Shown here piece after piece: positions 12,137 through 62,890 of a stretch of DNA of 64,000 nt. Numbering within the stretch: position 1 is the first letter of the stretch; each line of letters begins with the position of its first letter. The notes under the pieces were generated by a model. The model worked only from the letters and a program-made list of their open reading frames with translations. It was not told the DNA's origin and ran no database searches. The stretch comes from Chiloscyllium plagiosum. Lineage: Eukaryota. The translations under genes and the position numbers were made by a program. The DNA is taken from the NCBI RefSeq assembly GCF_004010195.1, contig NC_057719.1, forward strand, positions 23,439,217 through 23,503,216, written 5' to 3'.

Positions 12137-12147
12137 GGTCACCCAGT

Positions 12148-29300: not shown

Positions 29301-30531
29301 AAGAGAAGTAATAATGTGTCAGATCTTGTGATGAGAAGAACAGTGAGACTTACATGCTCAGTTAAACATCAAAATTCAGAGACTGTTGTCAAAATGCACT
29401 GCTGCAGTTCTCTTCCACGACGTCAGCACTGAAATGCATGCATGAACTCGTTCCAGCCAAAGAGTGCAGAAAAAATTTGAATAGGATGATGCATTCAGAA
29501 AGAAGTGAGTTTTCAATGACTGGATAAGTAATCATTGCCATTCATCAGCTTCATTAGCACTGAAAACTTAATGTTACAACTGTATAATCCCATTCCTTCA
29601 AATGATTATTAATGCTGGAGATTCAAAAAGTTTATTTCACTTTATCAACTTCCAACCATCATTGCATGGACGCAAAGCTGGCAGCCAATGCAGGACTTGG
29701 GAGTGGTGGGCCAGGTTACAAGTCATACGTTGCAATGAGACATGCAAAGGTATTAATACGAAGTCAGGCACTCTAAATCTTCTCATTCCAGAGCTTCTTG
29801 CCAAAGCAATAATAGTACTATAAGAATATATCAAGGGGCAAAAATAATGAATTATCCACAATACCTTACCTCTAGCTCCACAACAACTGCATACAAGCAC
29901 CATATGAATGAATCCTCATCGGCCATTAGTTCTGCTAACCACCTTCAGATCCACCCTTACATTGCTTTAATTTACCATCAGATTCAACTGGTCAATAACT
30001 TCTACTTTTCATAATTTGTTAATAAAGCAGACAGCTAAAGTATTTAAATTAGTTGAGACATTCTATGTGGGTTTTGAATTCAGAATGAAAATGCTGTGCT
30101 CAGAATTATCCAAGTATAATTAAAACAAAATCGAGTTGATAAATGTCAGTCTAATTTCACAATCCAATTTGAGCAATGTGATTAAATTCATGACCATTGA
30201 TTAATGATGTTGACCTTCTTACTCGTTGATACGAGGTTCAGCAGTTGTTTGAATTCACTTTGCAATGTGATTTCACGGTACCACATATTCCACACCCAAG
30301 TAGTGTTTTATTGAGAAAAGCAAAAAGACCCAAGGACAAATTGGCACTTGTAGTCAAAGGCTATTATAAAGTAGGGATGCAGGAAGAGAACAAAGGAACG
30401 AGTATAAATTTTAAAGGTTGCAAAAACAGAGAGGTCTAAAGGCTCACAGATGTGAACACAAACACAAATAGGTTATACTTTTGAAACCCCTGTTTAGTTC
30501 TCCGCTAGATTATTGTTACCATTTCTCTGCA

Positions 30532-30655
30532 TTTATAGATTCTTCACCTGGAAGGAAAAACCAGTAAAACTTGAGAATGATGCATACTGCTCTGATTTGT
30601 CTTGTATACCTCAGAACTGTACTCCAGTTTGACCAGTACATTCATTTCCAGATAT
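30532..30655 (-). repeat. Inverted copy of 31458-31583 flanked by a 13-bp direct repeat
   Basis: About 124 bp reverse-complement match with a few substitutions; CCATTTCTCTGCA at 30519-30531 and 30656-30668. Confidence 0.9.
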
Positions 30656-31934
30656 CCATTTCTCTGCACTTCACTTCACCAAGTGTGTCAAAGTCTTAGA
30701 GAGATACAGAGATAGTGCATTGAAATGATAATGATGGCAGAAGGGGGACTGCTGTTAAGTGAAGAGATGACAGTAGAAAGAAACACTTTAATTTCCATGA
30801 ATGTTGAATGTCCCATACTTCATTTCAGTTAATGAAGGACTTTTTAAGTGGCATGACTATTGTAAATAGCAGTCACAGGAGCCAATATGTATGCAACAAA
30901 CTCACACAAACAGCAATGTGACCAAATAATATGAGAATACCCTGAATGTTTGGCTGAGAGCCCAGATATCAATTGGTTAATTATAATAACTGAACCCACA
31001 AAAAGTCATTGCTTAATTGACAGCTCTCGCACTCTGATGTCTTATGGTAATTAACCAATGTTTATTTACATAAGATAAGGTTTCAAATGCTTACAGTTTC
31101 TGCTATTGTTACTTTAATGAGTCTGGACTATTGATAATTGTACTGACCTGTTGTGAAAGAAGTTATATTTTGAAGGAAGTGGACAGTTGTGAATGAATAA
31201 CTCCTTTTAAAAGTTTATTTAATTAACACTTTTTATTGTCAATTTAATGTCCATTTATTCAACACAGAGTTGATAGTGGGTAAATGGGTATAGTGGTGCC
31301 ATACCTGGCATGGGAATTAGGAAGAGCTGGTTGGATGGAAGGAAATTTTGTAATGGGAGGTGACAAAGGGCCAAAGGGGATGAATGGGGGCATAGCATGG
31401 AGGGGAACATGCTCAGAGGGAACATTCTCAGACAGAAAAACAGTAAAAGAGTCATCAATATCTGGAAATGAATGTACCGGTCATACTGGAGCACAGTTCT
31501 GGGGTATACAAGACAAGTCAGAGCACTATGCATCATTATCAAGTTTTACTGGTTTTTCCTTCCAGGTGAAGAATATATAAGTGAACATAATTTAGCACTG
31601 ATCATGCAAGGAATCATATGGTTGGTGGGGGAGTCATAACTTTATATTGGGGACATAGATAAGGCTTTTGAGTTTAACTTTCTAAAGGTTCCTCTTCCAA
31701 ACTGTGGTTCATGTTACCTCTAAGGTGCCAGGAGCCACAACCCTTTGAGAGGCTTGATTGGAGTCCATGTAAATTGTGGAAGACTAGGTCACACCTGACC
31801 ACAAAGTGAGTTGAATTTGCCTGCATCCTTAACAGGCATTCCTGAAAAGCAGAAACCCAGTATTGTGATCTGGAAATCCAACACTGGCTTCGATTGTTAA
31901 GTGGCACACCCCAACTCAATGAATATCCAGAAAG

Positions 31935-34399: not shown

Positions 34400-36950
34400 C
34401 CACCACACTGTGCTAATTGTGCCCAGTGGTGAGCAGCTTTATGACATCACCACAACATTACTCCAGCTTCTGAAAATCTTTATACAACATCCCTTCCCAA
34501 GCTGTTTTACCTCATCATTGATTACCATTTATATAAATTCTCAAATGAGTTAGCCAAGTTACTCTTTTTTAAAACATGTATTGTATACATGTCTCCAAAC
34601 CCTCCCAAAACTTGAGTTGATTCATCTGGGTCGAGAGGTGGATAAAGAGACTTTATGACAAGGTACAGAAACTCTTGAGGTGAAGTTGGTGAGCATTCTT
34701 CATATCTGATGCCTTCTGTTAGATCAGAGATTTGATCAATCTGGCAGTATGTCCACATGCTCTGAGCCTGTAATCTGAACCTCGGGATCAGGTGAAGGTA
34801 GTATTTCTTTATGGCACACTGTGAGTGGTGCCTGAGTGTATTCCATTGGAGTAGATGGTTCTAGCTTTAAGGAACATTCATGGGTAGCCCTGCTGTGCCA
34901 GATAGGACCTATGGTTATATCCATAAGTATAATCAGTGTTGTACTGGCTGTTGGACTCTGTAGGTCTTCTGCAAGTTGTTTGTCTAAGTTCCAAAATAGG
35001 CAACGTTTTGATCTGGTGACATGTATTATAATTCTGTATCTGTCCATGGTGAAGTCAGTTCTTCTGGAAGTTCCTTCTGGGAAGTGATCTGGATTGCCCT
35101 ACTATTGCTTCTTAGATTCCAATTTCATGGTGGTGTAGCAAGTTGAGATTTTATTCTGTGCCCCAACAGCAATTCAGATGGGGACATCCCTGAGGAGAGA
35201 TAAATGAGCAGAGCAATAAAACCAACATGGATTTTTCATCAGCAGATTTTTCACTCTGTGAGCCAGTCATTGTCATTCGATGGAGGTTGTCACACAGGCA
35301 ATTGTGTGACATGCTGTAAGCCCAGAGGTTTTGCACAATCTTTAACTATCTATGTAGACAACATCCACTGCCCTTTCCTCATCAATCATTCTTGTTAACT
35401 TCTCAAAAACATATGTTGCTGTGCATTCCAATGCTAAGCTTATGATTTCTGTAGAGAGTTCTCAGGGATACTGTAATAAAGGTGAGACGTTGAAAAAACT
35501 TATCCAGCTAATCTCCATGCTCTGAAATCATTTCAGATTGTGCACCGACTTTGGACTTGGGAAGTCTTTGAACAGTTTAGTTTTCTGGGGACCAGTTTAC
35601 CTCATCCTTGTTGATAATGTGATCAAGAAAGTGGATGGCATGCCTAGAAAATTCACATTTGTGAGTTAGTATAAGATCTGCTGTTTGTAAATCTTACAGA
35701 ACATCATGTACTTTACTTGCATGATGCTGGATAGTTTCAGCATGTAGCAAGATATAATCCAAACGATGCCATCTAATCCACGTAAAACATTGGAACATCT
35801 TTAGGGCAGAAATTATATGAAACAGAATCCATTGAAACAGTGTTGATGAATGTGGTAAGGAGTCGAGACATCTCATCTGGAGAATCCTGTCAAAGCGATT
35901 GTTAATCGTTGCTGCTCTTCCTGGTCCTACAAAAATAGGCATTATAGTTACCTATGAAAACATTCATGCGTTGTCCATCATAATTTACTGCATATTGCAG
36001 GGAATGTATATAAAGCAGGTTGGTGTACATCATATACAACAAACACAAAGAATGCTGGTGAAACTCAATTGTTCTGTTGGTATCTGTGGAGAGGGAAACC
36101 AAGTTAATGTTTTGTGTTGGATATGATTCTTCTTCAGAAGTGTAGATCATGTAATCTACTTCTCCAATTTCTGACACTTTCTAGCAGATTTCTGACATTT
36201 AAAAGTCTTCTCATGGCTGATAGGAATTTAACCTCCAGTAACTTTGTTGTTGGGTTGGTCTTGTTCTTATGATCCACATGATTTTAATTATCCTTTTACT
36301 GAAACATTTTAACCTGAATTTGCTAGTTTCTTTTGACTTTCTTAATTTGAAATCATGACACTTGATTGTTGAACATTTATGCAGTTGACTTCAAATTATT
36401 TTTGATTTGGAGGTGCCAGTATTGGACTGAGGTATACAAAGTTAGACATCACACAACACCAGATTATAGTCCAACAGGTTTATTTGGAAGCACTAGCTTT
36501 TGGAACGCTGCTCCTTCATCAAGTGGTTGTGGAGTATAAGATTGTAGGACACATATAAATTCTGTGTCCTACAATCTTATACTCCACAACCACCTGATGA
36601 AGGAGCAGCACTCCAAAAGCTAGTGCTTCCAAATAAAACTGTTGGACTATAACCTAGTGTTGTGTGATTTTCAAATTATTTTGGACCTAGTCCAGGAGCC
36701 CTTGTAGTTTTCCCTTCAATACCTTAAGATCCCTCTTAAGAGAGGGAGACCAAGGACTAAATCTGTTTAGAATCAGGAATCTCTGTGGAAGGATGAAAGT
36801 GATGACTGGTACACGGTTCTATTGTTTCCAATATCTTCCTATAGTTTCCAGTTTTCCATAATGCCTTCTCAGGAAGCAGGCGGAGTTCAATCATAGGTAC
36901 ATATCCTGCACTCTCAATCTGGTCATTTATATTGCTGAAATAAGCATATC
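34400..36950 (-). mobile_element. Highly decayed Gypsy-type pol relic
   Basis: Minus strand at about 35585-35800 reads SNVLRGLDGIV/DYILLHAETIQHHASKVHDVL*DLQTADLILTHKCEFSRHAIHFLDHIINKDEVNWSPEK, a Gypsy RT palm/thumb pattern; outer limits uncertain. Confidence 0.65.
36403..36669. mobile_element. Penelope-like insertion forming a ~105-bp-arm hairpin, 13-bp TSD
   Basis: Arms 36448-36553 / 36563-36668 are near-perfect reverse complements; TTCAAATTATTTT at 36390-36402 and 36670-36682; CTGATGA-AGGAG..CTCC-AAAA motif. Confidence 0.85.
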
Positions 36951-43099: not shown

Positions 43100-46000
43100 A
43101 ATGTACCAGCATTTGGTAGCGAAAATGCTGACTGTACACCCCCAGTAACCAGCTCCTAGACCGAAGTAGGCTGCATCTCAGGGCTTCATGTCAGCTCTCT
43201 TAGTGCTCACTCACTTTGCGCCTACTTGTTCATTTACAGCTTCATTCCATTTCTTTGCCTTGCCAATTAGCAGAGCCACAAGAGCAAGCCCTTTTGCTTT
43301 GCTGCTAAGCAGTCCTCTGACTAGGGGCTGCACATCTTGCTGTATGGCAGTGTGCTTTGTCAATCTCACATGTGCTCCATGTGACAGCAGCTTACACTGT
43401 AAATATACTGTATTTGCAGCAAGCAGCAGCCATGTTTCCAGCTTATAGAGGGGGCAGTCCTCAATGAAGTCCATGGAGGCACCCACCAGTCACAGACTCC
43501 CAGCTCAGTGAGAAAAAGTTAGCCTCCTATACCATTCAAAGGTATTAGCCACTGTGATACATCCAGTCAGAGCCTTACTAGTGAGGGTGTCTGTATCTCC
43601 ACAGTCAAGGCAATGGGCCATAAGCAATTTATTGATTCCTCAGCATCTGGTCCAGGAGATAGGGCTAATGCAGTAATGTAAGGGCACCAATCATATCCAT
43701 GGCCAGTCCATCAGGTCCCTCCACAGAAACTACAGAGGAAGAAGGATGCAAGTGTAGCCATCGCTATAGGACTGTGCCTCGGCAGGTTATTGTCCAGCAC
43801 CAGGGCCTTCAGGCTCTGGGAATGATTGCAGTAATGTAAGGGCACCAATCATATCCATGGCCAGTCCATCAGGTCCCTCCACAGAAACTACAGAGGAAGA
43901 AGGATGCAAGTGCAGCCATCGCTATAGGACTGTGCCTTGGCAGGTTATTGTCCAGCACCAGGGCCTTCAGGCTCTGGGAATGATGTAGTGCAATTGTGAT
44001 GGGGGGGGCGAGGTGGGTGAAGGGGGTCATAGCAGGATTTACTAGCATGGAATATGCTAAAACATGGCTGGGTAGGGTGTAATGTGGATGCGGAAACAGT
44101 GTCCACAGTCAGGAACACTTAAGCTTAAAGGGACAGGCTGTGTGCAATCCTACTTGGCATGGTAACCTCATATACCAGGGGCTGGGTGGGAAAGGTAGGC
44201 AGGTAGGAGCACATAGACAGGTTCAGTGGGGATCTGGGGAAGTGTGGCCTCTGTGGAGTTTATAGGATGGACTACTAGAAAAGGGATGTGAATGCTTGGG
44301 GGCTTACCAACACATTCAGGAGGACACTGGAAGCCACTGGCCAAAGAGTGCTGTCTATCACCTTCCATGGAGCTGGAAATCGGAAATATTCAATGGGAAG
44401 AAAACGGCTGTAAGCACTCACAGAGTGGGTAGAGCAAGTGACTCGATCTGTGAGAGAGGGTGTTGCTACAACCTCCGATCATAGGGACTTTAAGAACATG
44501 AGAACACAGGATGCCTCCTCCCAGGTCATTGATCCTCTGTGTAATCTACTTCCCAAGTGGACAACCCATTGGCAGCAATTCCTTTATGGACAGAGGAAAC
44601 AAAACATTAGAAATACTTAGTGTGAAAGGAAAAGGTGACCCAGTGGCCTGTGTACACGTTGTTCCCCTGGTTCCAGATGGTGTAGTCAGCTCTCAGCACA
44701 GACTCCATCTATTTAACTTCCTTAGTGGAGGTCAATAATTTGAAAATTTATTTAGGTCCACAAAGACAGCCTTATAACCACAGAAAGGTCAAAATCAGAA
44801 GCATTCCTGCATAAACCACAAGTGCTCCCTCTCACTACCATTTGTTGCAGCCCCTGAATCTGCAGCTGAGTTGCAGCGAACCTGCTTGGATGTTGAGCCC
44901 ATTGGCCCTGGAGGGTTTGTCAAGTGACATCATTGGCACTAGTGTTCTGATGGGCAAGGCATGCTGAGGGTCACCTTGACAGGGGGCTTCAACTTCCAAA
45001 GATTAAAGAGGCAGCAGAGGAGGTGGACACCTGGCCACCTCTACAGTTCCTTGAGTAGAAAGCGCTGAGGGACTTTTGTGTGGTTCCATGTCTGCCTCGA
45101 GATGTCCAGGGACCACCCTGTCTCTTTGTGATGAGGAATGTGAAGGTCCCTAACCCCACCCCCTGTTGCCATGACTTTGAGTCTAAGAACCAATGGCTGG
45201 GTGAAAAAGGTCAGATGTATCGGCTTCTGCAGCAACCCCTGAAGGTGATGGACCTGGATCTCCATCGCAACTGTCAACCTGTCCATCGAGGTAGCCAGGC
45301 GGGCGAATGATCCATTGCACTGCTGCAATCTCTGGGCAGAGAAGACCATTGCCTCCCATCTGCCTTTCTGTTGCTGCTGCTCCTCCCTCTGCATTTGGAT
45401 GAAGTCCCTATTGCAGACTGGACAGTGTCCTCTCCTCTCTGGGGTTGAGCAGGTTCCTGGTTTCTGGCAGTCCTCCATGTACCATTGACTAAAGATGTTT
45501 CTCCCTTGGCTAGCTACAGGACTGTCACAGTGAGGTGCTCACTACAGTATGGATCTACACTTTCCATGCTAAGGTTTACCCCAAGATGTTAGTACCTGGC
45601 CTGGTGTGGGGACAGGAGGCAGTCTTTACAATGAGTCGTCGCGGACCTTGATATTCCCACCCCCAGCAATGTTCGCTTTAAACCGTGTGACCACATGCTT
45701 GCATAGCTGCTCTGATGATCCACATGCAACGATCGGCATGAGCACACCAATCGCAACATTGCCTTTCAGTTTCGGAAGTCACTGCCGCACACTGACCTTG
45801 GAGGCTAGTGAGAGGGAATGCTGGACCTCAGACATCTAGCAGGGCACTCCTTGTGGTGCCAGGCATTTCTCTGCAGAAGGCGCGGAGAAGCTGGTACAAC
45901 ATGCGAGAGACAAAACAGCAAAGGCAATGCAGCCAGTGGTTAGAAATCATGTGGCAACGACTGAGATCAACAGCACGGTTAAAGGCAGAGCGGCAGTCGA

Positions 46001-47100
46001 GCTAAGAGTGCTACGTATTCATATGGCACCCCTTCTGAGGACAACATCCCAGTGTTCTCATGCAAGGTCCAGGATTCTCTCCTCAGTGCGGACTTGGATT
46101 TCAGGCACCCCGTCGGGTTCTCTCTGCCTTCTTATAGGCTGTCTTCTTTCTTGACCAGCCACAGAGACATGCATCCTCTAACAGTTCAAATTCTTCTTCT
46201 TCAGAGGTAGGGATGGAGCTAAGGGTCTCTGCCACTGAACTCATTGTGAAGGTTTACTAGGCACCACTAGTAGAAAGTGAGGACTGCAGATGCTGAAGAT
46301 CAGAGTTAAAAAATGTAGTGCTGGAAAAGCACAGCCAGTCAAGCAGCATCCGAGGAGCAAGAGAGTTAACATTTCAGGCAGAAGCCCTTCATGATGAAGA
46401 TCTAATGTTCATTATCTCTCACTAGTCTTGGACCTCGCAGCTTGCTCATGGGCCAGATTTTCCTGTAATAAGACAAAGAAAGGGACTGAGAATTCAAGAC
46501 TTGGGTAGAAGAGTAGTTAGTGGTGATATTTGAACAGGAGAAGTTGTAAGGAGGAGTGAGTAAGAAACATAAAGGAGAGGAAGGGGCATAAATTGGGATG
46601 AGGTGGGTGAGAACCATTAAGTGAACATGTTACTCACAATATTGAGACCTGTCATCCATAAGCCTTGATAAGATGTGTTTGCAATGACAGAATTAGAGTG
46701 AATAGTAGCCCTGAGAGTGTCAGATAGCAGAGATAAAATGATAACCCTTATCATCGTGCAGACCAGATGATCATCAATTTTCTTTCTACACTGCTGGGCA
46801 TCTCTTTTCACTCGTGACACCGCAGGCTGGTTGGGTCATATGGAGGTCAGATTGAAAAAAGAGTGCCCTCTTCTTCACTACCCCATCCACCATCATCTCC
46901 AGTTCTCTGGCCACAAAGCAAGCAGCTCTGTTGTCATTTGGCTAGGCCATGTCTTCGTTGATAACAGTCAGGCTCTCTTCTTGGTTTGTAGTGCTTGGAG
47001 TGGTGAGCAGCTGGACTGAGTATTGTGCCAAAGGCATCTAGTTTGCAAGGTCACACGCCCCCCCCCGGCTGCACAATTCTTGGAGTAAAGCACTTAACAA
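43100..47100. mobile_element. Decayed PIF/Harbinger-type element: Myb/SANT gene on - (about 46960-45040), possible transposase remnant on + (about 44300-44750)
   Basis: Minus strand: RAACFVARELEMMVDGVVKKRALFFQSD..KRDAQQCRKKIDD; second segment EKTAYKKAER..GVPEIQVRTEERILDLA. Transposase similarity is weak. Confidence 0.6.
43669..43984 (+). repeat. 158-bp tandem duplication
   Basis: Units 43669-43826 and 43827-43984 differ at only two substitutions that I could see (GTGTAGCC/GTGCAGCC, CCTCGGC/CCTTGGC). Confidence 0.93.
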
Positions 47101-47867
47101 GCCGACTGCAGAGCTAATGAAGTGAAGAGTAGAAGACTGAGTGAGCAAAGTTGCTCGGAGCCAGTTGACATGAAATTCACTTGCCAAAGCAGTTCAACTG
47201 AAGTTGGAAATATCCTGTCAATGTGTGCAATACAAGTGCAGGGGCTGACAGAAATAACAAACTGCTAAAGAATGAGAAGAGTTCTGCACATAATGGTGAA
47301 CTTAGATAACTCATAGTGTAAATTCTAATGCATACAAGTTTTATTTTGATTTAAAGGGGATGTGTGAGATAGAATCACTATTAGACCAATGTACTTCTTG
47401 GTTTGCCAGAGTCATGTGACCTTAGTAATGAGGCACTCAATGTTGTCTTGCATCTTACAGCCAGTTCAATTAAGACACAGTAAAAGCTAGACTGCAATTC
47501 TGTGAGCTCATAACATTAAACTATTGCGGTCTGAGTATTTTATTATCCTTAGGTAGCTTGATCCATCATCTGTTGAAGGTTCCTCTGAACAGTAGCACTA
47601 TGAATCTTCACACCTCAATTATTACATGATAGAAAAAATGACCGTTGTGGGATTGCCTTGACAGTATCATATAAAATTGCTTTCAAACACTGATTTACTG
47701 CCTAAAAGTAAAACCTATATTTTACAATTATACAGAGAGCCTTTGGGCAGAATGTTTTATTTGTTGGCATTGTTGCCCAAACGAAGAGATACCAAACCTC
47801 TTCTGAGGTTCTGCCCTGTTCCCAACACAGCTCTGGATCCCCAAATGCACAACCACATATATGCTAG

Positions 47868-47946
47868 GAGAAAGTGAGGACTGGTGATGCTGGAGATCAG
47901 AGTCAAGAGTGTGTTGTTGGGAAGACACAGCCGGTCAGACAGCATC
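47868..47946. mobile_element. Short Penelope-derived fragment (related pieces at about 36035-36145, 38700-38820, 42850-42940, 46270-46400, 63250-63375)
   Basis: GAAAGTGAGGACTG..GATGCTG.AGATCAGAGT shared with 46273-46310. Confidence 0.6.
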
Positions 47947-48439
47947 ACCAAGACACAAACAAAACAACCTCCAAGTGTAATGAAATTAGAGCCGCATCTT
48001 ACGTGCAGTAGGTGCCTGCATTAGGATCTCCAATTTGTTTTATCACTCAGTTAAGGAGATTGAGGGAGGTGAGGCCTCCGAAAGGCTTCACCAAACCAAT
48101 CTGGAGAAGACGAAACAAAGACTGAAGATATTTGGTGGCCAAGAGAATTGAAGGGAGGGAAGGCTAGTCAAACTTCCCAAAGAGCAAGAAAAGTTTTTAT
48201 TTTCTGACTGCATGCAGCAGGTAAGTGTCAAAGTGATATTACTTCAACAAATTAATTCAACCCATGCTGAATGCACAAATTCTGATAAGGTCAATGCTGG
48301 AGGAAACAGCTGAGAATGATCTTGGTAAATATTAGGATTATATCTTATGAATTTTTGAAGCTGTGAAAATTTTCATCATGCGTAGAACATTGCTAACGTA
48401 AATATTTCATTCTGAAGAAATTGTCAAGACTCTTGTTGT

Positions 48440-50740
48440 CAACTACTTAAGTTATATCCACATATCCTCAATTCTCAATCCAAATTCTCAGTTCAAACAC
48501 CTTCCACTCTCATCCTTGTTTTCAAATGCCTCTCTGTGGCCTGTCTCTTCCTTACCTCTGCAATCTGCAAGAGACCGACATGTGACCTTATAAGTCTGGA
48601 TGTTTAAACATCCCCAATTTTCACCAGATTATCATTAGTGACTGAGCCTAGAATTCCCTCCGTGAACCTCTCTACTTCTACACTTCCTTTAAAACCCATG
48701 AAGTACACCTTTGGTCAGCTTCCTGAATATTTCCTCATGTGGTTTGGTGTCATATTTTGTTTTATAATGCCTTCATGAAGTACCTTAGGATATTTTTTGT
48801 TACATTAAAGGAGCTACATAAATACGAGACTTTTAGCAGAATGAAATGTTGGCGGCGATGTTTGCAAAGGTGATCTTTTATATGGACTCAACAACTAATT
48901 GATTCATTCCAGTTGTGCCAATGTTGTAAGTTTGGGTATGTTAGTCAAGTCCAAGGTTAAATGGGTAAATGTTAATATTTGGATCTGGTGTAGACATAAT
49001 TATAGAGAAAGTATGTATGCACAGAGAATTGAAACATCTCAATTAAATATCTTCCTGCTTAAAATAAGACAATTGTAACAACGTGTACCATTCCAAGACA
49101 ATAGAAATCGAGCAATCTAGGGATATTAAATAGCATAACTTAGCAAGAGAATCCCTTTTGTGCAGAAGGAGGTCATTTGGCACTCAAGTCCACACCAACC
49201 CTCCAAAGGATATCCCAACCAGACTCACTACCATATCCCATAAACGCACATTTACCATGGCTAATCCGCCTAGCTGACATATCCCTGAATGCGATGGACA
49301 ATTTTTCAGCATGGCCAATCCACCTAATTTTCACATCTTTGGACTGTGGGAGGAAACCATGCAGACCCTGGGAGAATGTGCAAACTCCACACAGGCAGCC
49401 ACCCAAGGTTAGAATTGAAACCAGGTCCCTGGTGCTGTGAGACAGCATTGATAACCAACTGAGCCACCATGCCATCTAATACCCTCACACCTCCTCCGCC
49501 CCCCCCCCCCCACCCACCCTCTCACCAAGGTGTAATTGGAAGTAGCTCCTATCAATCCTATTTCGTCCATGAAAAATAATATAGCTATACCCAAACAAAA
49601 TACTTGTGAAGTAAGCTACTTTTGGTTTGTTAATGAGAAACAATACACTCCTGGTTACTTGCTAGCACTTAATTCAAGATCTTTTCATTAGATGTTCAGT
49701 CAGGTACTTCGGTGCTCAAGTAAGGCCAGAAAATTAGCAACTGCCTCAGTTATTTGTCTCAAATGTTCAGCAATAATGTGAATCCAATTTAAGTGGAATC
49801 CAATTTGTGAGATGTTGTGCAGAAACTCATCTTTGAAACTATGCCAGCCACAATTGCTTCAAGACAGCAATGCATTTTCAACAACAACAATAATTTCTAC
49901 TTATATAGTGCCTTTAACATAACAAAATGTCTCGAGGTCCCATACAAGTACTCCATACAGAAAACAAACATTATCAATCCACATAAGGGGATACAAGGGC
50001 AGATGACAACGAGCTTTGGATTTTAAGGAGTACCTTAAAAGAGAATAGCAAAGTCGGGAGGTGGCAAGGTGTAAGGAGGGATTTCCAGAGCTTAGGACCT
50101 TGGAAATCAAAGACCAGGCCAACAAACAATTAAAATCAATGCTAGTCAATGGGCTGCAATTAGAGGGTTGTGAAGTTGGAGAAGATTGTAAAGATAATGG
50201 ACTTCTTTGAAAATAAGGTTGAATACTTTTTAATTAAAATGTTGCTTGATTTAGAGCTGGTGTCAGCAGGCAGGCATAGGGGTGACAGAGAAACAATCCT
50301 TCTTCTCAGTAGCAGTATTTTGGTAACCTCAGGTTTATGAAGTGTAGAGTATGCAAAGCCAGCCAGAAATGTTCACATGGCCAGGCCGACAGGTAACAAA
50401 GACATGATTGGCTGTTGCAGTAGCAGATTAGCTGAGACATGGGAAAGGTCAGACAGTGTAACAGAATAGACAATCTTATTTATGGCATCGATAATTGATT
50501 GCAAATTCACTTCAATGTAAAATACTGACACCAAGATGATACATAGACTGACTTAATTTCAAACTGTCGGGAAGAGAACTGAAATAGGTAGTTAGGAAAT
50601 GGAGCTTGGAGCAGGGACCAAAAGATCTGTTTAAATTTTCCCAAAACTTAACTAGAGAAAATTTCTGCTCATGTAGCATTGAATGTTGGCTAAGCAGTGT
50701 ACTAATTGGGTAAGGTGGAGGAGTCAACAGATAAGATACA
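48440..50740. mobile_element. L2 LINE 3' fragments (about 48440-48830 +, about 49878-50740 -)
   Basis: L2-type 3' end TTACATTAAAGGAGCTACATAAAT and its reverse-complement counterpart TTATATAGTGCCTTTAACATAA. Confidence 0.6.
49147..49473 (-). mobile_element. HE1-family SINE, diverged
   Basis: Reverse complement of the HE1 V-domain and head. Confidence 0.85.
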
Positions 50741-53700
50741 CTGTATTGAAGTTTCTAACGTTGTACAAAATATTTCATAAGGTATTCATAAGATTTCTTT
50801 GGAATTGTGGATAACTTCCCTTTATCCTTAAAGTTAAGCAGAACCTTTTCATTTTGGAATAGTTTCAAGACTCATTTGTGATGCCTATGGTATTTTCAAT
50901 TAATCATACAATTAATGTGATGCATAGACTTGTCATGGACAATGGAACAAATGGAACAAATAGATGATAATGGACCACATGCCATTTTACATTCCATTCA
51001 AATTTATTTTCTATTCAAGTTGGGCAAGATGCGAAATAGACTGCCAATTTGCTGCTCCACAATTTTTTTCTCTCCTGTTTGAATAGAATTTATACCACTT
51101 AATTGTATTCATTCCTTTCTCTTTGTTTGGATTACACCAAAGAAGCAATTCTCTGAGAATATTTGTGTCATTGTCAACATGGATCTACCATGCAATGATA
51201 AAGCTAGTTTTCACGGATGCACAGTTATCGACCCAATTGCCCTTAAAGCTATTGCTGGCAGTACTACCTAAAAGTAAGTTAAGAGATTTTTATTTATCTG
51301 AATCAGGAAACAGGCAGCAAACAAATATTTTTCGTAGCTCCATATTTCAACCACGGACCATGTAAACTCACAATCACCCTCATCTCAAAGATTTCCTCTC
51401 CCCATTACTCCTTCAATTTGAATTTACTTGCTCTTTAGCAAGCATAGATATATGTGCATATGTGCTTCACCAATCAATAAATGTGATAGACAACTGAAAC
51501 ATTTGATTTTATAGAATGACCTATCACAACTCTCAGTCTTTTTTTCTCAGCATGTTTCATCAATTAAAATCTGTTGGTCCATTTTTAATAGTATTGACCT
51601 AACATTCTTCTGGTCTTCAAACTTTTACCCAAAGGTAGCATATCTAATAATAAAGTACTATCTCAGTCCTACAAGGAAGTATCAGCCTAGTTTATGCTCC
51701 TTTTAAGTATGGAGTCAGTCTATGGGGGAAGTGCTTGCCAACTGAGTCAAGCCAGCACACCGAGAATCATACAGCTTAAAAAAATTGGGTAAAGCTTAAT
51801 AACATTTTCATATGTTGATTTATTAAGGTTATAATTAATCATTTGATTCATACATTTCAGCAGACTTAAATTATATGTAATTATTCTATCATATTTATGC
51901 ATAGATAATTAATTTATGCCTGTACCTGTTCTCATATTCATTGAGGAAATACAATCAGAATAATTTTATTATGGCTTTAGATCCATCTAAACCTCCACGG
52001 CTTTTGTGCCTTCTGCTGAGTGTGTTTTGGCAGATACAGTGTGGTGTGCTCATGCCTGGGCCATTAACAGAGATTGTCCACACTCATGTCAGTGATCATT
52101 AACAATCTTTATTAAAATATAAACAGGAGGTGGTAAAAGAGGACATCTTTGGAATCCTACATACTTCAATCCCAGTTCCATGTGACATCACTATAACATA
52201 GTTTTTCTATACACCTCTCTGTCTGAGTTTATTTTTCCCACAAACTCTTAAAATCATGAACTACTGATTGTCTCCATTAATCCATACATTTCTCCATCAT
52301 GCCCTGAACCCTCTTTGTATGACCCAGCCAGTTCCTTTGCCTGATGTGTCAACCTCTCACAATGTTGGCAGATCTCATGGAGGTTACGTAGGCTGTATAT
52401 GCTTCCATATCATATTTTTGGAAGGTGAGTAAATTGGGGGGGTGCTTGGGCTGCAACACTTTGAGATAACCTGAATCTAATGATAGTGAAGATTAACAAA
52501 GGAAAAACTGACACATGTGGACACAAACCATCGCAACCCTGGAAAAGGAAGACAATGAACTGAAATTCATACTCTGCTCTTCTTCTGAATTGCATAGCTG
52601 GAGAAAGCATAAAGCACTTGTTGGGAAAAAAAAGAAAGCACTTTTGTCACATATGAAAAAAATAATAAATGCATTCTCCATGGTAACTGTGATGATGAAA
52701 AACCCATTCACTACATTTCTAATAATGCATGTGGTAAAAAGAAATAAAACAAAGAGCAAGACAGTTATGGAGAAGTGAATAAGGATTATCTTGCTAGTCC
52801 TAGAGCAAGTATTTCTCTTTCTATAGGTAGTGCTATCATTCCTACACTTGTTTCTGCTTGATATTTCTCCTCTGCTGAGATCTGCTGATCTCAGGAACTC
52901 CATCAGAGTGCAGGAGTGTATCATCACCAAAGTGAAGATTTGTTGAAGTGTGATCCTTTTGGACATCTGCATCAGGATTCAAATCTAAGGAAAACTGCTG
53001 CACGGTACTTGCCTGAAAGTTCAGCATTAGCATTATATAGCTTCTGTATATGAATATGAATGTTAATAAGATGTTGTTACATCTTCAGATAGTTGCTGTC
53101 CAGCCAACACCTTGTTTTGATGGTCTTGTAATCTTGGTGCAGCATAGTATTTGTGCACTCCAGTACTGTAATATGTTCACCTTCTGTTATTTGTAATGTG
53201 TGAATTCCTCTTTGTGGCTTGTTAGTCCTGTGTGACGACTAACAGCTGGACTTTTAGCTTAGGAAGTTTTTAGATAATCAGATTTCTCCAACACTTGCTT
53301 ATGAATGCTAGGCTTTAAGTTTTCTAAGATACTCTACAGCTCCTGAATCTCTGAGCCTCTACTGCCTTACTAGAAGAAAATTTGATGAATTCCCTGACTT
53401 GCTAATGTGAATCTGTTGCTGACTTTGGCTGCCAATTGTGCAAATCAGTAATCTCTGAATGTTCAATATTGGCTTGGTAAATTTGGGTTCATGCGTATCC
53501 TTTTCCAATTCATTTGGATGTTCTTCACACCTAGTTGTATGGATGTGTCACATATAGTTAAGTTCTGTGAAGAGAGATGGGATATTATCCACACTCTCTG
53601 AAGCTTCAATGTTCATGAATCTGTGCTAAAGCTCTAAGACCTCCTTCTTGTATGATTGATGATCTCTTTCTAGCTCCATCTCAGACTCCCCAAATATTGA

Positions 53701-54044
53701 GGCCATTTTGCTGACTGTAGAAACTGTGGAGTTTGATGGTGATTATAACTGAGATACTATAAAGTCCTCTTCAGCTGCTGTCCTTTTAACTGTTAAAGCA
53801 TCTACAATTTCTGCCTGCACATTACACTTAGCCTCCAGCATTGGCAGTTCCTTTATCTTCAGTTTGAACTTTCTGTGACATTGCGAATGTTTCATGCATC
53901 TGTAAGAGATGGTGAGATTTGGCCGACAGCAGCTAAGATTTCTGGATGTCAGTTTCTTTCTCTTTCCTTATTGTGTCCTGACGTTCATCACAGTAAGAAA
54001 TGTCTATATCCATTTGCAACCACTGCTGCTGTTACTTTTCATAG

Positions 54045-54375
54045 CATCATAGAATCCCTACAGTGTGGAAGTGGGCCATTCAGCCATCAAGTCCACATTA
54101 GTCTTCCAAAGAGCATCCCACATAGACCTGCCCACCTACCCCATTACTGTAACCCTGCATTTCCCAGGCTACCCCACCTAGCTTGCACATCCCTAGACAC
54201 TGTGGGCAATTTAGCATAGTCAATCCACCTCACCTGCACATCTTTGGACTGTGGGAGGAGACCAGAGCACCCAGAAGAAACCTATCCAGACATGGGGAGA
54301 ATGTACAAACTCCATGCAGACAGTCACCTGAGGCTGGAATCGAGGCTGCGAGGCAGCAGTGCTAACCACTGTGCC
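54045..54375 (-). mobile_element. HE1-family SINE
   Basis: Reverse complement of HE1; interrupts the coding-like 52130-54813 segment. Confidence 0.88.
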
Positions 54376-56788
54376 TGTACTATCATTTGATGGTTCAGTG
54401 GAATTAGCAGCCATATTCACCTTTTTGTTATCTTCATCAGCACAAGGGTAATTCTTCTCAAAGGAGGCAATAGATTCATCATGATCATTGTTGGTTGAAT
54501 CAAAGAGATTGGAAGATCCAGGATATCTGCTTCCATTACATCAGCAACATCAGTCACAGCTTAATTCTCTGCCATATTTTTCCGAAAAAAAAAACAAAGT
54601 TCTTGAATGCCCTCACGCTAGTCACCTTCATCCTTGATGGCTTTTTTTTTTTGCCTTTGCTCATAGTGTCTTCTTTAATAGGAATGAAAAATCTGCACTA
54701 TCTTCCTGTGGTGCTAGTTCTGAAAGTTCTGCAGTGGAGACAGTTTCGCGGCGTGCAAGAGTGAATTTCATGGAACTGCCAAATCACGAAGATACAAAGT
54801 CACACAAACATCACTGTTTAATAAGGAAGAGTGACAATTAGCAATAACAAAGCAAGTATTAGGGATCTCTCTCCCATTATGACTAAACATAAACTGTATC
54901 TGCCCTCTCACTCTTATCTGGATCACTTGGAATTGAATGGAGAATGGCTGGAGAAATCTTGATTTAACTACCATGCTGGATCTGAAAGAAAGGATACTCC
55001 TTTTCTTTTACTTTAATTAAAAATTAGTTTCCTTGTCATTAACTATTATATCTACATACCAGAAATTTTCTTAGGCCTCGGCATAATTAGGAGAGCCAAA
55101 ATCTTATAGTATGTCTATTATGTAGCCCAAAAATAATTCAACCTGCTCCTTACTTTCCCCACCCTTTAATTCCTTTTGATTTAACCTTTAATTTGTGGCG
55201 TCCCCCATGACAATCCAATCAATGGCAGAACGTAGCACTACCTATTTTGTAAAACTCTTCATGATCTTGAAGAACTTAACTTAGACAACTTATCAGCTCA
55301 GTCCTTAACCTTAATTACACTTGTCTCTGTTGATGAATGCACTGTCCTTATACCTTTAAAGATCTGAAGAGATTCCTGTAACTGCACTCATGCACATGCA
55401 CATTCAACAGTCGTCATTTAATTTCTCTCTCTTAGCTTGGCACATGCTCATTTAATTCTGAAGTTGATCATAACTCAGATAGCAATCATCTTTTACATGC
55501 AGATTCTGTATTAGTGATGAATTGTAACTGATTAGGAGCAGTCTGTTTCACCTTCAATATTCACATTTGCCCATATGAATACTTCCTTGTGATGCTTATT
55601 GAGAGTTGGTTTGTTCAGGAACATGCTGCTATAAGGAATTACACAAATGTAAGCTTTTATTTAAGATTTCTATATAACAATGGGTTGAGTATATCTAATG
55701 TTGAAGCATGGTCATGTAATGAAAACGTTAGGTGGACTGTTATCAATAATGCAGGGTGAAATTCTATCAATGTTTAGATTAGTCCAACACAGAATTAAAA
55801 TTACAAAGGTACACTTGATGGTTCAAAGGTTTGGAGAAATATATAGCATTGTAAGCTGCACTGTTGTCTTCACAGCATTTTTCAAGTCACTCATCTTTTT
55901 CAGCAGAATGTTCAGCTCTCCCGCTTCCATGTGTACTGAGGAGTCTTTTTATTTTTGTAGTTGTCAACACTGCACTAGCAACAAAAACTAATACTGTTCC
56001 TTTCTGAATGCCATTCTTCAAGATCTTCAGACCTTAGACATTGAAACATGACATTGTCAATTTCCCAATCTCTATACCACATGGAAGCTCAATGGAAGAT
56101 CCCAGGCCTATTATCCTCTACAAAAATGTAAGAGACCTCTCCCAAAAATCTTCCAGAGCCACTAATTAACCTTGAATAGCACACCAACAGGACTTTCCAG
56201 GCAATTATGAAATATAATTGTTGCAAATTTGCCTGTTACAAAGTGTTTCAATGTCAGATAGCAAGCGCTGTACAGCAAAGTGGTATATATTACATACTGC
56301 ATTTGTTCAGAATACAAGGGTGGTAAAGTGGATTTAAAAACTGCATATGAACAGAGTAAAGAATGAAAATTTATTCCTGACGTGTCCACATGTATTAGCA
56401 GCAATATTGTTGACTAAACATGCTTAAACTTGGGTTAATTGTTGTTTTGACATCGGGAGAGAAAGACTTCACACAGAGTGAATCTGGCATTTAAACCCTT
56501 ACAATAAATTTATATTCAGCACTCAATCAAGAGACAGATAGCAAAATAATGAAATATATCACTCAAACTTGCACAATGTTTTGATGGCTGGATTATTTTG
56601 TGAGAGTAGATTTTTGAACTGATTTGATTTATTACAGTCACGCGCACCGAGATACAGTGAAAAGTGTTGTCTTACGTGCTTTACAGACAGATGGTGCAGT
56701 ACAAGTGCATCAGGCAAGCAGAACAGAGTGCAGGATGCAGTGTTATAGTTACTGAGAAGGTGCAGAGCGAGATCAATATTAACTTTAA

Positions 56789-57080
56789 GGGTGGCACGGT
56801 AGCTCAGTGGTTAGCACTTCACAGCGCCAGTGACCCAGGTTCAATTCCAGCCTCAGGCGACTGTCTGTGTGGAGTTTATGCATTCTCCCTGTCCACAGTC
56901 CAAAGATGTGCAGGTTAGGTGAATTGGCCAAGCTAAATTACCCATAGTGTTCATGGATGTGTAGGTTAGATTAATCAGGGGTAAATGTAGAGGAATGGGT
57001 CTGGGTGGGTTACTTTTCAGAGTGTCAGTATGGACTTGTTAGGCTGAAGGGCCTATTTCCACACTGTAGGGATTCTATGA
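56789..57080 (+). mobile_element. HE1 SINE (internally deleted)
   Basis: A/B boxes, V-domain, tail CACACTGTAGGGATTCTATGA. Confidence 0.9.
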
Positions 57081-57883
57081 TTAAAGAAGTCCATTCAAAA
57101 CTTCTGATAACAGCGAGGAATAATCTGTTCATGGATAAATTGATTTGTGGATGCTTGGAAAAATATCATGAGTGCCCAGCAAGATGATGGGTTTGTTTTC
57201 ACTAAGTGGAATGTAAAGTATAAACCAGAATAATTATAGCTGACAGGGCCAAAACACAGGCAAGTGACTGAAGGTGACAAAATTCAGCAGCTTTATTGAA
57301 TGACTACCTGAAGAAGATGAGGGGTGGGGTGGTGATGGGGAGTTTAGAATCTCTGCTCCGACAGGAGGTGAGCTGGGAGCTGGGAAGGATATTTAATTAG
57401 AGTAGGGTTCTAATTAAAATGGCAGCTGCAGGCAGTCTTGGAGTCAGGGAGCACGCATGTCAGTCAAAACAGTGCAGACAAAACTGTGTCATCTCTGAAC
57501 CCAGGATAGAACCCCTCGACCAAAAGCACTTTGCATCTAACTGAGTTATTAACTTCAGAAAGGGGTGCTGCTGAAAGCCAGCAAGCACCACGCCGCCTCA
57601 CCCCACACACCTCCATACAAACACCACCGTTGCTGGCAATGCCCCCCAACATCCTCTGTGAACACCTCTGGCTTGGTCACTTCATAATCCTGGGTTGTTT
57701 ATTTCTGCTCAGCGCGACATACTTTGCACATGTTCAGCACAGAAACATTATATTGCTCAATGTATTACAGTTCAAATACATTTATTTCCAGCTTTCCATG
57801 AATATTTCCACTGTTTTAAAACTGGCTGGTTACTAGCCTACGGAAAATCAACAGATCGAATCCACGGGTAGTGAGCTATGAAA

Positions 57884-58796
57884 TGTGAGCATTTTAGAAC
57901 CATTTCTTTTTATTTTATGTTTTTGAAAACTGTGGACTGAAATGAGAAAGAATTGTTTAAAGAAACAATTTGAAAGCCTGCAGTTTTGAAAGCAAGTAAC
58001 GTGCTACCAACTGCAAGCATTGTGCAAACAGTTGTTTGAATGAGCAGGAACTGAAAGTTGAATTGCAGACTATTTGAAACCAAGGGGCTGTACTAAGGCA
58101 GCTTTTGCTGGCAACAAGAAATTGATAGGAATAGTGACGAGTTAATAATGACAGAGAGGTTTTTTTTGTCTGCCAATAACTGTGTAATTGGTTCTCAGGT
58201 AACTGAATAGCTGGCAGCTGGAAATAGATTACAGCCAGAAAGAAGTGTTCAGTCCTTCCCCAATTCGGGAGCAGTCTCCCTGTTCTCTGCAGTCAAAACA
58301 CACTGTAAACCCAAAGAGAACCAGTTTATCTTTCCTGCAGCAGATGTATATACTATGGCTTTTAACTGAGAAATCAGAAACTTTTCATGAGGGAATCAGC
58401 TGCCTTGTGTCTCTCACCAACTACGAAGCAACTGGAGAAAGGTGATTGAGGCAATGTGCTGGCCAGCAGAACAGTCATTAGGATTGTCTCAACAATATAA
58501 CCTGGGAACAAAGATGACTGAACTGTATTTCCATTTTTCTCCCCTCCGCCCATAGCCTGTTTGACCTGTTTGTCTATCTGTGAATGTATAAGGGGAACTT
58601 TATACGAATTTATATAGAGTTTAATAACTAGTCATTCTTGTTCAGTACAGAAATATACTACCTATACTTCCTATCAATCTAGGTCTGAAAGTCAGATAAA
58701 TTGGGAAACTTTTCATACCTTATAAAATCATTAACATTTGGATGGCTCTAGAAACAGCAGGGCTCAATTTCCAATGTACTACACTAGTGAGTCACA
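57884..58796 (+). mobile_element. Possible solo LTR
   Basis: TGTGA..TCACA termini and LTR-like composition; no clean TSD. Confidence 0.35.
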
Positions 58797-58880
58797 ATGG
58801 AATAGTACTTTCTAATTTGTTATTGAAATGACATGAACTTACACCATTCTGGATGTAAATTAATAATCCCTCGGTAACCC

Positions 58881-59465
58881 TGTAATACTTTTAACAAGGC
58901 TATGGCTTCCTTCACTTTTATTTTCAGAGAGAACTTCTGAAAAGTCTGGGCTTGGATGGGTTTTAGGGCAAGTTTGATTATAGCTAACAGATACTGTCTC
59001 AGGCAACTGGCTTTTAAGTTTAAAAAACCTTGTACAATGAAAGGGGAGTGGCCAGTTCTCCCAGCTCATCTTTGCTCTGGTTTGGTTTGGCTGTACACTG
59101 AAAGTAGTCAAGTGGTTGTAAAAACTGCTGGTCCCTCCTCTCTCTCTGACATCTCTCCTGTAAGACCCTGTGTTTAATTTTATCTTTTGTGCCAAGGGGA
59201 GTTTATGGGGATTGTTGCAGGTATTGGAACTGCATCATTAAGTTGGGATGAGTTTTTGGATAGTTATTCACTATTCTGGTCTCTTTTGTTTGTGTTTCAT
59301 TTGGTAATCTTGTAAATAAATTCTGTTTTGTTTAAAACTACGTGGTTTGACCAATTGCATCCCTCCTGGAATATCCATGTTACACCCACTTAAAACAATG
59401 TGCAAAGTTAGGGTCTGGGTTACTTTCTTGAAATGTTTTAAGGGGCTCTGGCCTGATCGATAACA
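58881..59465 (+). mobile_element. Probable solo LTR
   Basis: TGTAAT..ATAACA termini (same ATAACA end as LTR 2253-2958), AATAAA at about 59315; no matching TSD. Confidence 0.5.
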
Positions 59466-61853
59466 GCACTGATATAAATTGTATTGAATACAACTTCCAG
59501 ATGCAATGTTATCCTCTTGCCTCCATTGCCTCTATCTGATCTGGCGTGGTCTATGGATGTCAGAGTACTTCATCTTTTACATTATCATCATTAGCACATT
59601 CATTTCCCACTCTACTACAGCCCTCTTGACTGGCGCTCTCTTCCTCTGGTGACACAAAGCAGATGGGTGGGGACACACTCTATTGATTCACTCTGATTCT
59701 GAGACTTTCTCTAAAGTGGTTAAACTGAGGCATGCTGCTGCAATCTCAGGTATGGCCACTCTGTCCTTTATGATGCTGGGACTGAGTGTGGTATACCCTC
59801 TGTTTGGCTGACCCTTTAATGCACAGAGACAGTCATTTGCTGACTGCCATTGAATTCCATCTCAGCCTCCAAAATTGGCCTCCACAGTCATGAAATTCAG
59901 CCCACTATGTCTAAGTTGGAAGTCATCTGCACTTTAACTCCCCAAACCAAAACACTAAAATATTCATGATTCTGAAATGACTAATTGTAATAGAAAGAAT
60001 CAAATGGCATTACATCACCTCTACTCTCACCTCCCACAACTTATGTCTGGAAAATGTCCTGATTTGGATGGGGGAAGATAAAGTTGTTGAAACCTATGCG
60101 GTAGGAATGCATCAAACTGTTTTTTAATTCGTTCATGGGATGTGGGCATTATTGGCTGGTCTAGCATTTATTGCCACTGAGATGATGCTGGTGAGCTGCT
60201 GTCTTTAATCACTGCAATCTAATTGCTGTTGGATAGACTAAGAGAGTTCGAGATTTTGCCATTAGAGAGAAAGCTCTAAGATTTTGACGCAGTGACACAG
60301 AAGGAACAGTGCTATATTTCTAAGTCAACATGATGAGTTACTCAGACAGGTACTTACAGGTAGTGGTATCCCCACGCATCTGCAGCCCTTGTCCTTCTAG
60401 ATGGAAGTGGTCATGACTTTGGAAGCCAAGCTGGTCCAGTAAAGGGTGAAACTGGTCTCAAACTAAAGCCAAATATCTAAAGGACTCTAAAGACTTATGA
60501 ACTGCATATTCCTTATTCCTTCCCTTTTGTGCTAGACATACTCCCCTTTAAAATATGATATCTGTTTGTGATTGATGTTTGATGTGGCATTTTATTACTT
60601 ATCTCAGAGTTAGTAAGTAATTAAATTCCTTTTTCCTTAATGCAGGAAAAGTTAATTTTAGACTAGAACTACATTTTTATTAAAGTGTGAGATAGCTGTA
60701 TGCTAAAGAGAATTGAAACTCTTATGGAAAATTAACAGAGATAAAGAGAGGGAAGCTGAATCACCCCTTCTTATCTATCTATAGCAAAACTTGAATGATT
60801 TTTTCTGTTTTCTTTCTCAAACGTTTCTTTATCAAATGTAAGATCCTCACTTACTGATTATAGCAGAATGTTTTCTTCAGATAATAATTCACAGCAATTT
60901 TATTTCAGTAAAAGAGAGTATTTTTCCACCTTCAGGACATTGTTTCCCTTCTCAATTGAATAAGAGCAATGTCTACCTCCACACAAGACTTGTGGAAATT
61001 TTCTGTAAGCTTTTCCTCCTCAGTCTCCAAGATGTTACACCTTTAGTTCAGCAATCTCTTTGACTGGATTTCTCCAACTCTTGTTTCATTTGAACATATT
61101 CAAGCTTCCTTTAGTGCTTACATTTAAGCTGTGCTAAAGTACTCCCCAGGTCTAGATGCTCCATAGTTTGGGCCTCTGGTTATTTACTGAAAAAATGCTT
61201 GAGTGCTTCTGTGAATTGCTAATGAGACTCAGTTGCAGACTTCGGAAATGAATAATGCAGATGGCATTGGAGAATGACCTTGTATACATTTGGATCTGAA
61301 CAAGGTGATCAAGTTTGTGCTCCATGGAGTCATCACTGCTCACCCAGGGTGGTACCTCAGCAATCCTTGGTATCTATTGGAAGATAAATTGTGATACCAT
61401 GCTATCCCCTCTGAATACTGAAATCTGCAGCGATCATGACAGCATTCAGATATTGGTCGATTGCTGATTTGGCACAGTGAAAGTTGTAACATCAGTCATC
61501 ATGCTTGGTACTACAAATATACTGACAGAATTTGTCACTATGTCCAAGTTGGAAAGGCAGGGCCCCAGATTCCACATCAACCCTAGATCAGGTATGAGAA
61601 TATCACCATTTCTAACAGCTTGTGTCCAACCTCTGGCTAGGACTTGAACATTGGTCATTGCAGTAATGGCCAATACCATCACTTTCAGAGTGTTCTAATA
61701 TACCTGATCCTACCAGTTAATTCTACTCTTTCTGAATAGATACCACCTTATCCTGCAAGAGCAAGGCAAATATGAGAATAAGTGTCATGTCTTCTGTTTG
61801 CCTAGTGTGGCTGTCATGATTTAAATCGGTATTACCGGTGCTAGTTGTGGCAT

Positions 61854-61900
61854 TGTGTGTGTGTATGTGTGTGTGTATGTGCGTGTGTGTGTGTGCGTGC
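61854..61900. repeat. (TG)n imperfect microsatellite
   Basis: Seen directly. Confidence 0.9.
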
Positions 61901-61934
61901 GCACGGCTTGCTGCAATGTAGTGTAGGCTGAACT

Positions 61935-62890
61935 GAAGACCATAAGTCATACAAGCAGAAATTAGGCCATTCAACCTATCGAGTCTGGTCCACCATTCTA
62001 TCAGGGCTGATAAGTTTATCAACCCCATTCTATTACTTTCTCCCTATAACCTTTGATCGCCTTGGCAATCAAGAACCTCTCTATCTCAGTGTCTTAAATA
62101 TATTCAATGACCTGGCCTCCACAGCCCTCTGTAGCAGTGAATTCCATAGATTCACCACTCTCTGGCTGAAAAGTTTCTTCCTATCTGCATTCTAAAAGGT
62201 CTCCCCTTTACTCTAAGGCTGTGCCCTCATACCAATGGAAACATCTTCACAACATCCATTCTGTCCAGGCTTTTTAATATTCTGTATGCTTCAAATAGGT
62301 GCCCACATCCTTCTAAACTCCATTGCATATCGAGCCAGAGTCCTAAAATGCTCCTCATAATGTTAAGCTTTTCATTCCTGGAACCATTCTCGTGAACTCC
62401 TCTGAACATGCTCCAGGGCCAGTACATCCTTCCTGAGATATGAGACCCATAACAGCGCACAATACTCCAAATGTGGTCTGACCAGAGCCTTATAGAGCTT
62501 CAGAAGTACATCCCTGCTTTTACATTCAAGTCTTCTCAAAATAAATGCTAACATTGTATATGCTTTTCTAACTACTGATTCAACCTGGAAGTTTACCTTG
62601 AGAGAATCGTAGACTAGAACTCCCAAGTCTCTTTGGACTTCAGACTTCTGAATCTTTTCATTATTTGGAAAATAGTTTATGCTTCAATTCATCTTATCAA
62701 AGTGCACGACCTCATATTTTTCCACAATTTACTCTATCTGCCATTTTTTTGTCCACTCTCCTAAACCCGTCCAAATCCTTCTGCAGCTTCCCCTCTTCCT
62801 CAACCCTACCTGTCCCACTACTTATCTTTGTATCATCTGCAAAAGCCAGAATGCCCTCAGTTCCTTCATCTAGATCATTAATGTAAAAAG
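61935..62890 (-). mobile_element. CR1 3' fragment
   Basis: LGVLVYDSLKV..QVESVVRKA..LKLYKALVRPHLEYC..W..YLRKDVLALE. Confidence 0.92.

Follow-up and report, generated by a model that had tools for sequence, protein, structure and literature searches.

A very old, unannotated coding relic with a possible KASH5-like layout on the minus strand of a Chiloscyllium plagiosum contig

KASH5 (CCDC155) is described as a protein tail-anchored in the outer nuclear membrane which binds SUN1 and activates dynein to move chromosomes in meiosis (PMC3787381, PMC10071310, PMC9242646). The human protein has a mass of 62.7 kDa, and it has been proposed that KASH5 arose from a fish fue/lrmp gene (both PMC3787381). 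Here we examine a 64,000-nucleotide (nt) stretch of the shark Chiloscyllium plagiosum (contig NC_057719.1, positions 23,439,217 to 23,503,216 of the forward strand), referred to below as the window, on the minus strand of which a first-pass annotation made from the letters alone had placed a hidden decayed gene of about 14 kb (47757..61700) with KASH5/LRMP-like architecture. A coding relic in what we call segment B and a coiled coil in segment A upstream of it (Table 1) survive from that proposal, whereas the 14-kb extent does not. We regard the finding as an unannotated, very old pseudogene without a named parent, i.e., as a lead and not as a new system; pseudogenes this old are a known kind.

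If segments A and B and a candidate last exon belong to one gene, the resulting order of coil, unstructured spacer, hydrophobic run and short tail with a near-PPPX end resembles that of KASH5. A tyrosine/valine/methionine spacing ahead of the coil, picked out by eye, is also KASH5-like, and, as in KASH5, an MRVI1 domain would not fit in. Unlike KASH5, the relic is broken throughout, its spacer of about 570 codons is longer than the entire human KASH5, and its EF-hand and coil would share one exon of about 900 nt; no sequence search connects the two. The locus also resembles zebrafish Futile cycle, or long LRMP (IRAG2, KASH6; PMC3787381, PMC10827754), in its long acidic middle after the coil and in a possible transmembrane segment with a KASH-type end. 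In contrast to long LRMP, an MRVI1 domain was not found and has no space before the candidate end, and the residue pattern of human KASH6 fails to score. Our preferred account, to which we assign a probability of about 0.35, is that a single host gene, now dead and spanning about 9.4 kb, would have encoded a coil, an extended acidic spacer and an anchor at the C-terminus, and was most likely of KASH5 type.

Table 1. Features of the minus-strand relic and its vicinity (window coordinates; z given for the generic and the coil/disordered composition model; KD, Kyte-Doolittle hydropathy; SINE, short interspersed nuclear element)
Feature	Position	Strand	Observations
Segment A, candidate decayed exon of ~900 nt	60854..61752	-	acceptor at 61752, donor-like GTAAGT after 60854
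Possible decayed EF-hand pair, by eye	61321..61470	-	Tyr 61452 to Met 61333 = 119 nt
Coiled-coil-like reading, last third of segment A	60854..61120	-	frame changes at ~61063, 61030, 60943; several TAA stops
Possible mini-exon named by the first-pass annotation	54912..54981	-	acceptor in top 1.2%; donor weak; z ~0
Segment B	54813 to ~52813	-	~1.7 kb coding-like, split by a SINE
Segment B, first part, acidic/Ser-rich decayed coding sequence	54376..54813	-	z = 1.8 generic, 3.3 coil/disordered
SINE-like dispersed repeat within segment B	54040..54375	-	self-BLAST copies elsewhere in the window, repeat family D1
Segment B, second part, Glu/Ser/Lys-rich decayed coding sequence	52813..54039	-	z = 3.5/4.5; tiling ranks; stop deficit
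First hydrophobic helix candidate, immediately past segment B	52733..52789	-	KD 2.69, rank 5/121; T-rich DNA
Candidate last exon	52357..52538	-	acceptor, hydrophobic run, ~35-residue tail across small frame slips, LPTL-stop
Dispersed repeat piece, outside the relic	47864..47946		80% match to 46267-46350

Coding-like bias and decay in segment B

Coding potential was scored as frameshift-aware amino-acid composition against 300 dinucleotide shuffles, which preserve strand skew. Two composition models were used, one for generic vertebrate proteins and one for coiled-coil/disordered proteins, the latter chosen after the sequence had been seen; the amino-acid frequencies, as well as the heptad propensities and splice matrices used below, were all set by hand from general knowledge. 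Under these two models segment B reaches z of about 3.2-4.8, and no window on the minus strand scores higher. The signal is strongest in its second part (scored over 52790-54038), which bears out the large Ser/Glu/Asp/Lys-rich exon of the first-pass annotation, and is lower in the first part. When 210 windows of 1.2 kb were tiled over both strands, the two covering segment B came 7th and 10th with the generic model and 4th and 5th with the coil model, and all windows that outscored the better of them overlap open reading frame (ORF) regions of retroelements. The main frame at 53853-53362, picked post hoc, is 164 codons long and holds 3 stops, against an expectation of 11.3 (p=0.002). The SINE within the segment is 336 nt long, and its excision leaves the flanking frame intact, for which the chance is 1 in 3.

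The composition score also picks up, with z near 2, the decayed long interspersed nuclear element (LINE) that lies at 62.0-62.9 kb, but misses another at 3.0-3.9 kb. One of nine negative-control stretches reached z=2.3-2.7, and 50300-52300 behaved likewise, so values of z below 3 are weak in this window. Segment B is well above this background as a coding relic, and it would indeed be missed by ORF-based annotation, as had been claimed for it.

The best path through segment B runs through 12-13 stops in about 560 codons. This stop density fits a decay of about 0.2-0.3 substitutions per site after the death of the gene, which corresponds to 54-66% identity to the ancestral protein. Such an identity, combined with a fast-evolving spacer or with a death shared across sharks, would probably put the relic below the detection limit of homology searches. 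A word match of 52500-54040 to sequencing runs found at least 20 runs holding all or part of it among the 24 listed, with word shares of 0.63-0.78 for one organism, 0.21-0.26 for a second and 0.17 for a third; no RNA run was among the matches listed, which provides no evidence on expression.

Two further minus-strand stretches carry some coding-like signal. One is the 50300-52300 region mentioned above, downstream of the candidate stop, where the signal is weak (z 2.4-2.7). The other is a decayed stretch at 15951-16370 with a local score of 23 and no Pfam hit, which may derive from an old transposon or be a further dead exon; the coding score around it is z 2.3-2.7 for 16000-16900 and z 3.3 for 15041-16240.

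Segment A, the candidate end and the sequence between

The acceptor that opens segment A is within the top 10 of the 4317 minus-strand AG dinucleotides, per a hand-made matrix. The coil at 61120-60854 ranked 1, 3, 1 and 2 of 2122 windows of 360 nt under four settings, which upholds the coiled coil seen in the first pass. Against shuffles of segment A it gave p=0.05, 0.01 and 0.07 under three settings; for one setting, which fell in a non-local regime, the window-wide ranks were discarded and the shuffle p-values alone were used. By eye, all three of its frame changes sit in short A, G or AG runs.

The EF-hand residues of human KASH5 are given as I36, T40, Y60, V64, R73, L77, F97, L98 and M101 in PMC9242646, and the coil begins 54 codons after M101 per PMC10071310. 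Read by eye, segment A has a Tyr/Val/Met spacing near that of Y60/V64/M101 (119 nt versus 41 codons), and its coil sets in about 60 codons past the corresponding Met.

For the other end of the gene, the first-pass annotation had named a hydrophobic helix with a short tail near 47.8 kb and a boundary at 47757. Both were rejected as the gene end: the reading that ends at 47757 overlaps the dispersed repeat at 47864-47946 and is therefore partly repeat-derived, and its hydrophobicity is middling (45th of 121 stop-free windows with KD of at least 1.6). Nothing was found to support exons at positions lower than 52357, and the likeliest extent of the relic thus shrinks to about 9.4 kb (61752-52357), perhaps with further exons beyond the window.

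A better, if only suggestive, candidate for the gene end lies at 52538-52357, about 300 nt past segment B. Its acceptor at 52538 is the best of 47000-62500 per the hand-made matrix. The hydrophobic run from 52535 onward ranks 97/121 in one frame, and hydrophobic windows are common here, as the total of 121 indicates. The LPTL-stop at 52371-52357 is one base off a KASH-type [LP]PP[LVI]-stop; human LRMP, judging by a primer in PMC3787381, ends in PPPV. Only the ending at 52357, 1 of 21 near-KASH endings in the window, combines an acceptor score of at least 7 with a hydrophobic window of at least 2.4, and none did so in 60 shuffled regions. We would like to note that these thresholds were set after the site had been seen and that the shuffle erases pyrimidine tracts, so this result is suggestive only. 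The operational description of KASH proteins in PMC4050730 (a position after the transmembrane segment, a tail of 9-40 amino acids and a four-residue end) fits the candidate in all three respects only with frame slips and one substitution allowed. The candidate tail has no match to Pfam KASH or in the PDB.

A second hydrophobic candidate, the 52789-52733 helix directly after segment B, has a T fraction of 0.39 versus 0.24 in segment B and could be intron. Between segments A and B, the first-pass annotation had quoted acceptors before 54981 and 54813. Both sequences are present, but their strength is not beyond chance: 52 and 282, respectively, of the 4317 minus-strand AGs score as well or better per the hand-made matrix. 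Elsewhere in this interval, a short coil-like reading at 55850-56000 (minus strand), found by eye after a weak acceptor, may be an extra decayed exon.

Homology searches and competing explanations

Several results weigh against a single KASH5-like gene or lend it no support. On the side of composition, in no segment does plain stop depletion by minimal-stop counting reach significance (best p=0.07), and the plain stop count was dropped as a coding test because it is too weak; segment A as a whole has no coding-like composition (z at most 1.3), and the donor after 60854 is weak (rank 248 of 3422 GTs). The EF-hand and coil of KASH5 are spread over many small exons, unlike the single exon of about 900 nt that segment A would be. 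The small exons of the first-pass annotation were not confirmed, as the mini-exon at 54981 has no coding bias and the 6 kb separating A and B offer no convincing exons. Segment B ends without a good donor, none with a positive score being present between 52550 and 52900. A spaced pattern of residues named in the papers (17 in all), applied to the EF-hand, gave p=0.03-0.19 in segment A, with the best path elsewhere than the by-eye site, and p=0.56-0.98 over the whole region. The spaced residue pattern of human KASH6, as given in PMC10827754 and PMC3787381, scored below shuffles at the candidate end (p=0.79-0.97).

The homology searches point the same way. Pfam searches of 27 + 30 + 21 + 17 translated pieces returned no family hit (EF-hand_9, KASH_CCD, MRVI1, KASH), and the EF-hand-like N-terminus of the first pass was detected neither by Pfam, with its low power here, nor by the spaced pattern. 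Pfam is also blank on two pieces of decayed retroelements, at 62.0-62.9 kb and at 35.4-35.7 kb, so its silence on the relic is weak. Its only hits were weak and unrelated (CP2, E 0.02-0.04; DUF2738, E 0.018), at about chance level for so many pieces. A grainyhead/CP2 origin of segment A was considered and rejected given those CP2 values, which have no backing from the PDB. Word searches of 5.8 billion proteins were blank for segment B (lengths 513-1633), for segment A in one frame (lengths 494-1574) and for a two-frame profile of segment A (lengths 285-2000), and the coil of segment A has no KASH_CCD match or homolog by Pfam, word search or PDB. When a single frame of segment B (53898-52780) was searched with phmmer against 1.84 billion representatives, 0 hits reached E<=0.001. 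In simulations, which are optimistic, phmmer detected 94/100 targets at 35% identity, 80/100 at 30% and 43/100 at 25%, so a close intact ortholog of the segment B exon is probably absent from that library. PDB searches (best E 0.11), an ESM Atlas search of two stop-free pieces (best 0.79), a comparison with viral and metagenome contigs, and Rfam over 45-64 kb also yielded nothing.

Nevertheless, the shared strand and the order of segment A, segment B and the candidate end fit a layout of coil, spacer and anchor. The MRVI1 domain, which binds the inositol trisphosphate (IP3) receptor, was not picked up by Pfam in any of the minus-strand frames of 47.4-62 kb, a search of low power, and there is no room for it in the roughly 300 nt before the candidate end; together these disfavor a long LRMP/IRAG gene. 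With the Pfam, word, phmmer, PDB and motif searches all blank, the KASH5/LRMP membership proposed in the first pass is neither shown nor excluded; we treat it as a lead, and the relic should not be filed as a member of that family on present evidence.

The coding and coil signals fit equally well one dead host gene from a different coiled-coil family whose members have a large exon of low complexity, such as EF-hand dynein adaptors (ninein-like or other) or tail-anchored proteins of golgin type. With an acceptor at the start of segment A, the true N-terminus of such a gene may lie outside the window, and its anchor would be absent or would be the 52789-52733 helix, which follows segment B directly with no donor between. 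That the KASH patterns do not score also suits this explanation. We hold it to be possible but doubtful, since the near-KASH ending with its acceptor and hydrophobic run at 52538-52357 speaks against it, and such families supply no homolog either (phmmer for segment B, word search for segment A).

Retroelements fill the window and account for every other top coding-like stretch, and their decayed pieces here are likewise blank in Pfam. Segments A and B could be separate, very old ORFs of transposons or endogenous viruses, one coiled-coil and ORF1/gag-like and one acidic, with a sense strand that is A-rich like that of the surrounding LINEs; nowhere in the window is the excess of A over T stronger than in segment B. 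This we consider unlikely. Neither segment has a second copy within the 64 kb, the proteins searched with segment B (in one frame) and the viral and metagenome contigs gave no match, splice-like sites stand at the segment starts, and no reverse transcriptase, integrase or RNase H text was seen beside A or B.

More unlikely still is that segment B alone is a coding relic, i.e., an isolated large exon, and that chance produced both the coil in A and the KASH-like end. The absence of an overall coding signal from segment A, the modest coil p-values of 0.01-0.07, the post hoc thresholds and pyrimidine-depleted shuffles behind the near-KASH ending, and the abundance of hydrophobic windows all agree with it, whereas the coil's ranks of 1-3 among 2122 windows, on the same strand and 6 kb upstream, do not. 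That all of these pieces are purine-skewed non-coding DNA which we have over-read is very improbable: the non-significant stop depletion, the negative control at z 2.3-2.7 and the blank homology searches would accord with it, but segment B beats skew-preserving shuffles under both models.

Implications and genomic surroundings

On the preferred account of one dead host gene, the ancestral protein would have comprised a coiled coil, a long acidic spacer, a membrane anchor and a short tail. If it was KASH5-like, the intact protein would have been tail-anchored in the outer nuclear membrane with its luminal tail binding SUN proteins, and dynein would have been recruited via the N-terminal EF-hand pair and the coil. 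No such protein could be made today, and the relic is probably decaying neutrally.

Were the KASH5 reading true, it would date the KASH5/LRMP split and open the question of the telomere-dynein linker in shark meiosis. A more specific form of it, a KASH5-type gene without MRVI1 which was intron-poor (perhaps retroposed) and was lost so early that none of the annotated sharks retains it, strikes us as distinctly improbable. If true, that form would place the split between KASH5 and long LRMP before the divergence of sharks and bony fish, contrary to the proposal in PMC3787381, and would imply that another adaptor moves meiotic chromosomes in these sharks. A full-text literature search, which covers few subscription papers, returned nothing on KASH5 evolution in cartilaginous fish, and no title on shark KASH5 or LRMP was among the matches listed (the best 20 of 47).

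As a whole, the window is vertebrate DNA rich in AT and in repeats. Pfam identifies ORFs for reverse transcriptase, endonuclease and RNase H at 1.6-2.0, 5.9-8.3 and 12.8-14.4 kb, and a SINE-like family recurs across its whole length, per self-BLAST and a repeat-family search. No chain of intact exons emerged from a splice-site scan of the window. At 34500-35900 (minus strand) lies what we take, from its motifs, to be a heavily decayed gypsy-like pol fragment; it is blank in Pfam and served as a sensitivity control.

Other elements were seen further from the relic. An L1/Tx1-like element with reverse transcriptase matches occupies 11131-15800, its 3' end partly duplicated 3.65 kb upstream. On the minus strand at 29050-29118, an acceptor in the top 1.6% is followed by a short EF-loop-like reading that is blank in Pfam. 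Inverted repeat arms of 143 nt at 30523-30665 and 31448-31590, 89% complementary and 782 nt apart, resemble a non-autonomous DNA transposon. A near-perfect palindrome at 36439-36677, with arms of 115 nt and a spacer of 9 nt, is probably a head-to-head repeat, and a 158-nt unit at 43669-43984 stands in two tandem copies of 98-99% identity, which may reflect a recent duplication or an assembly artefact.

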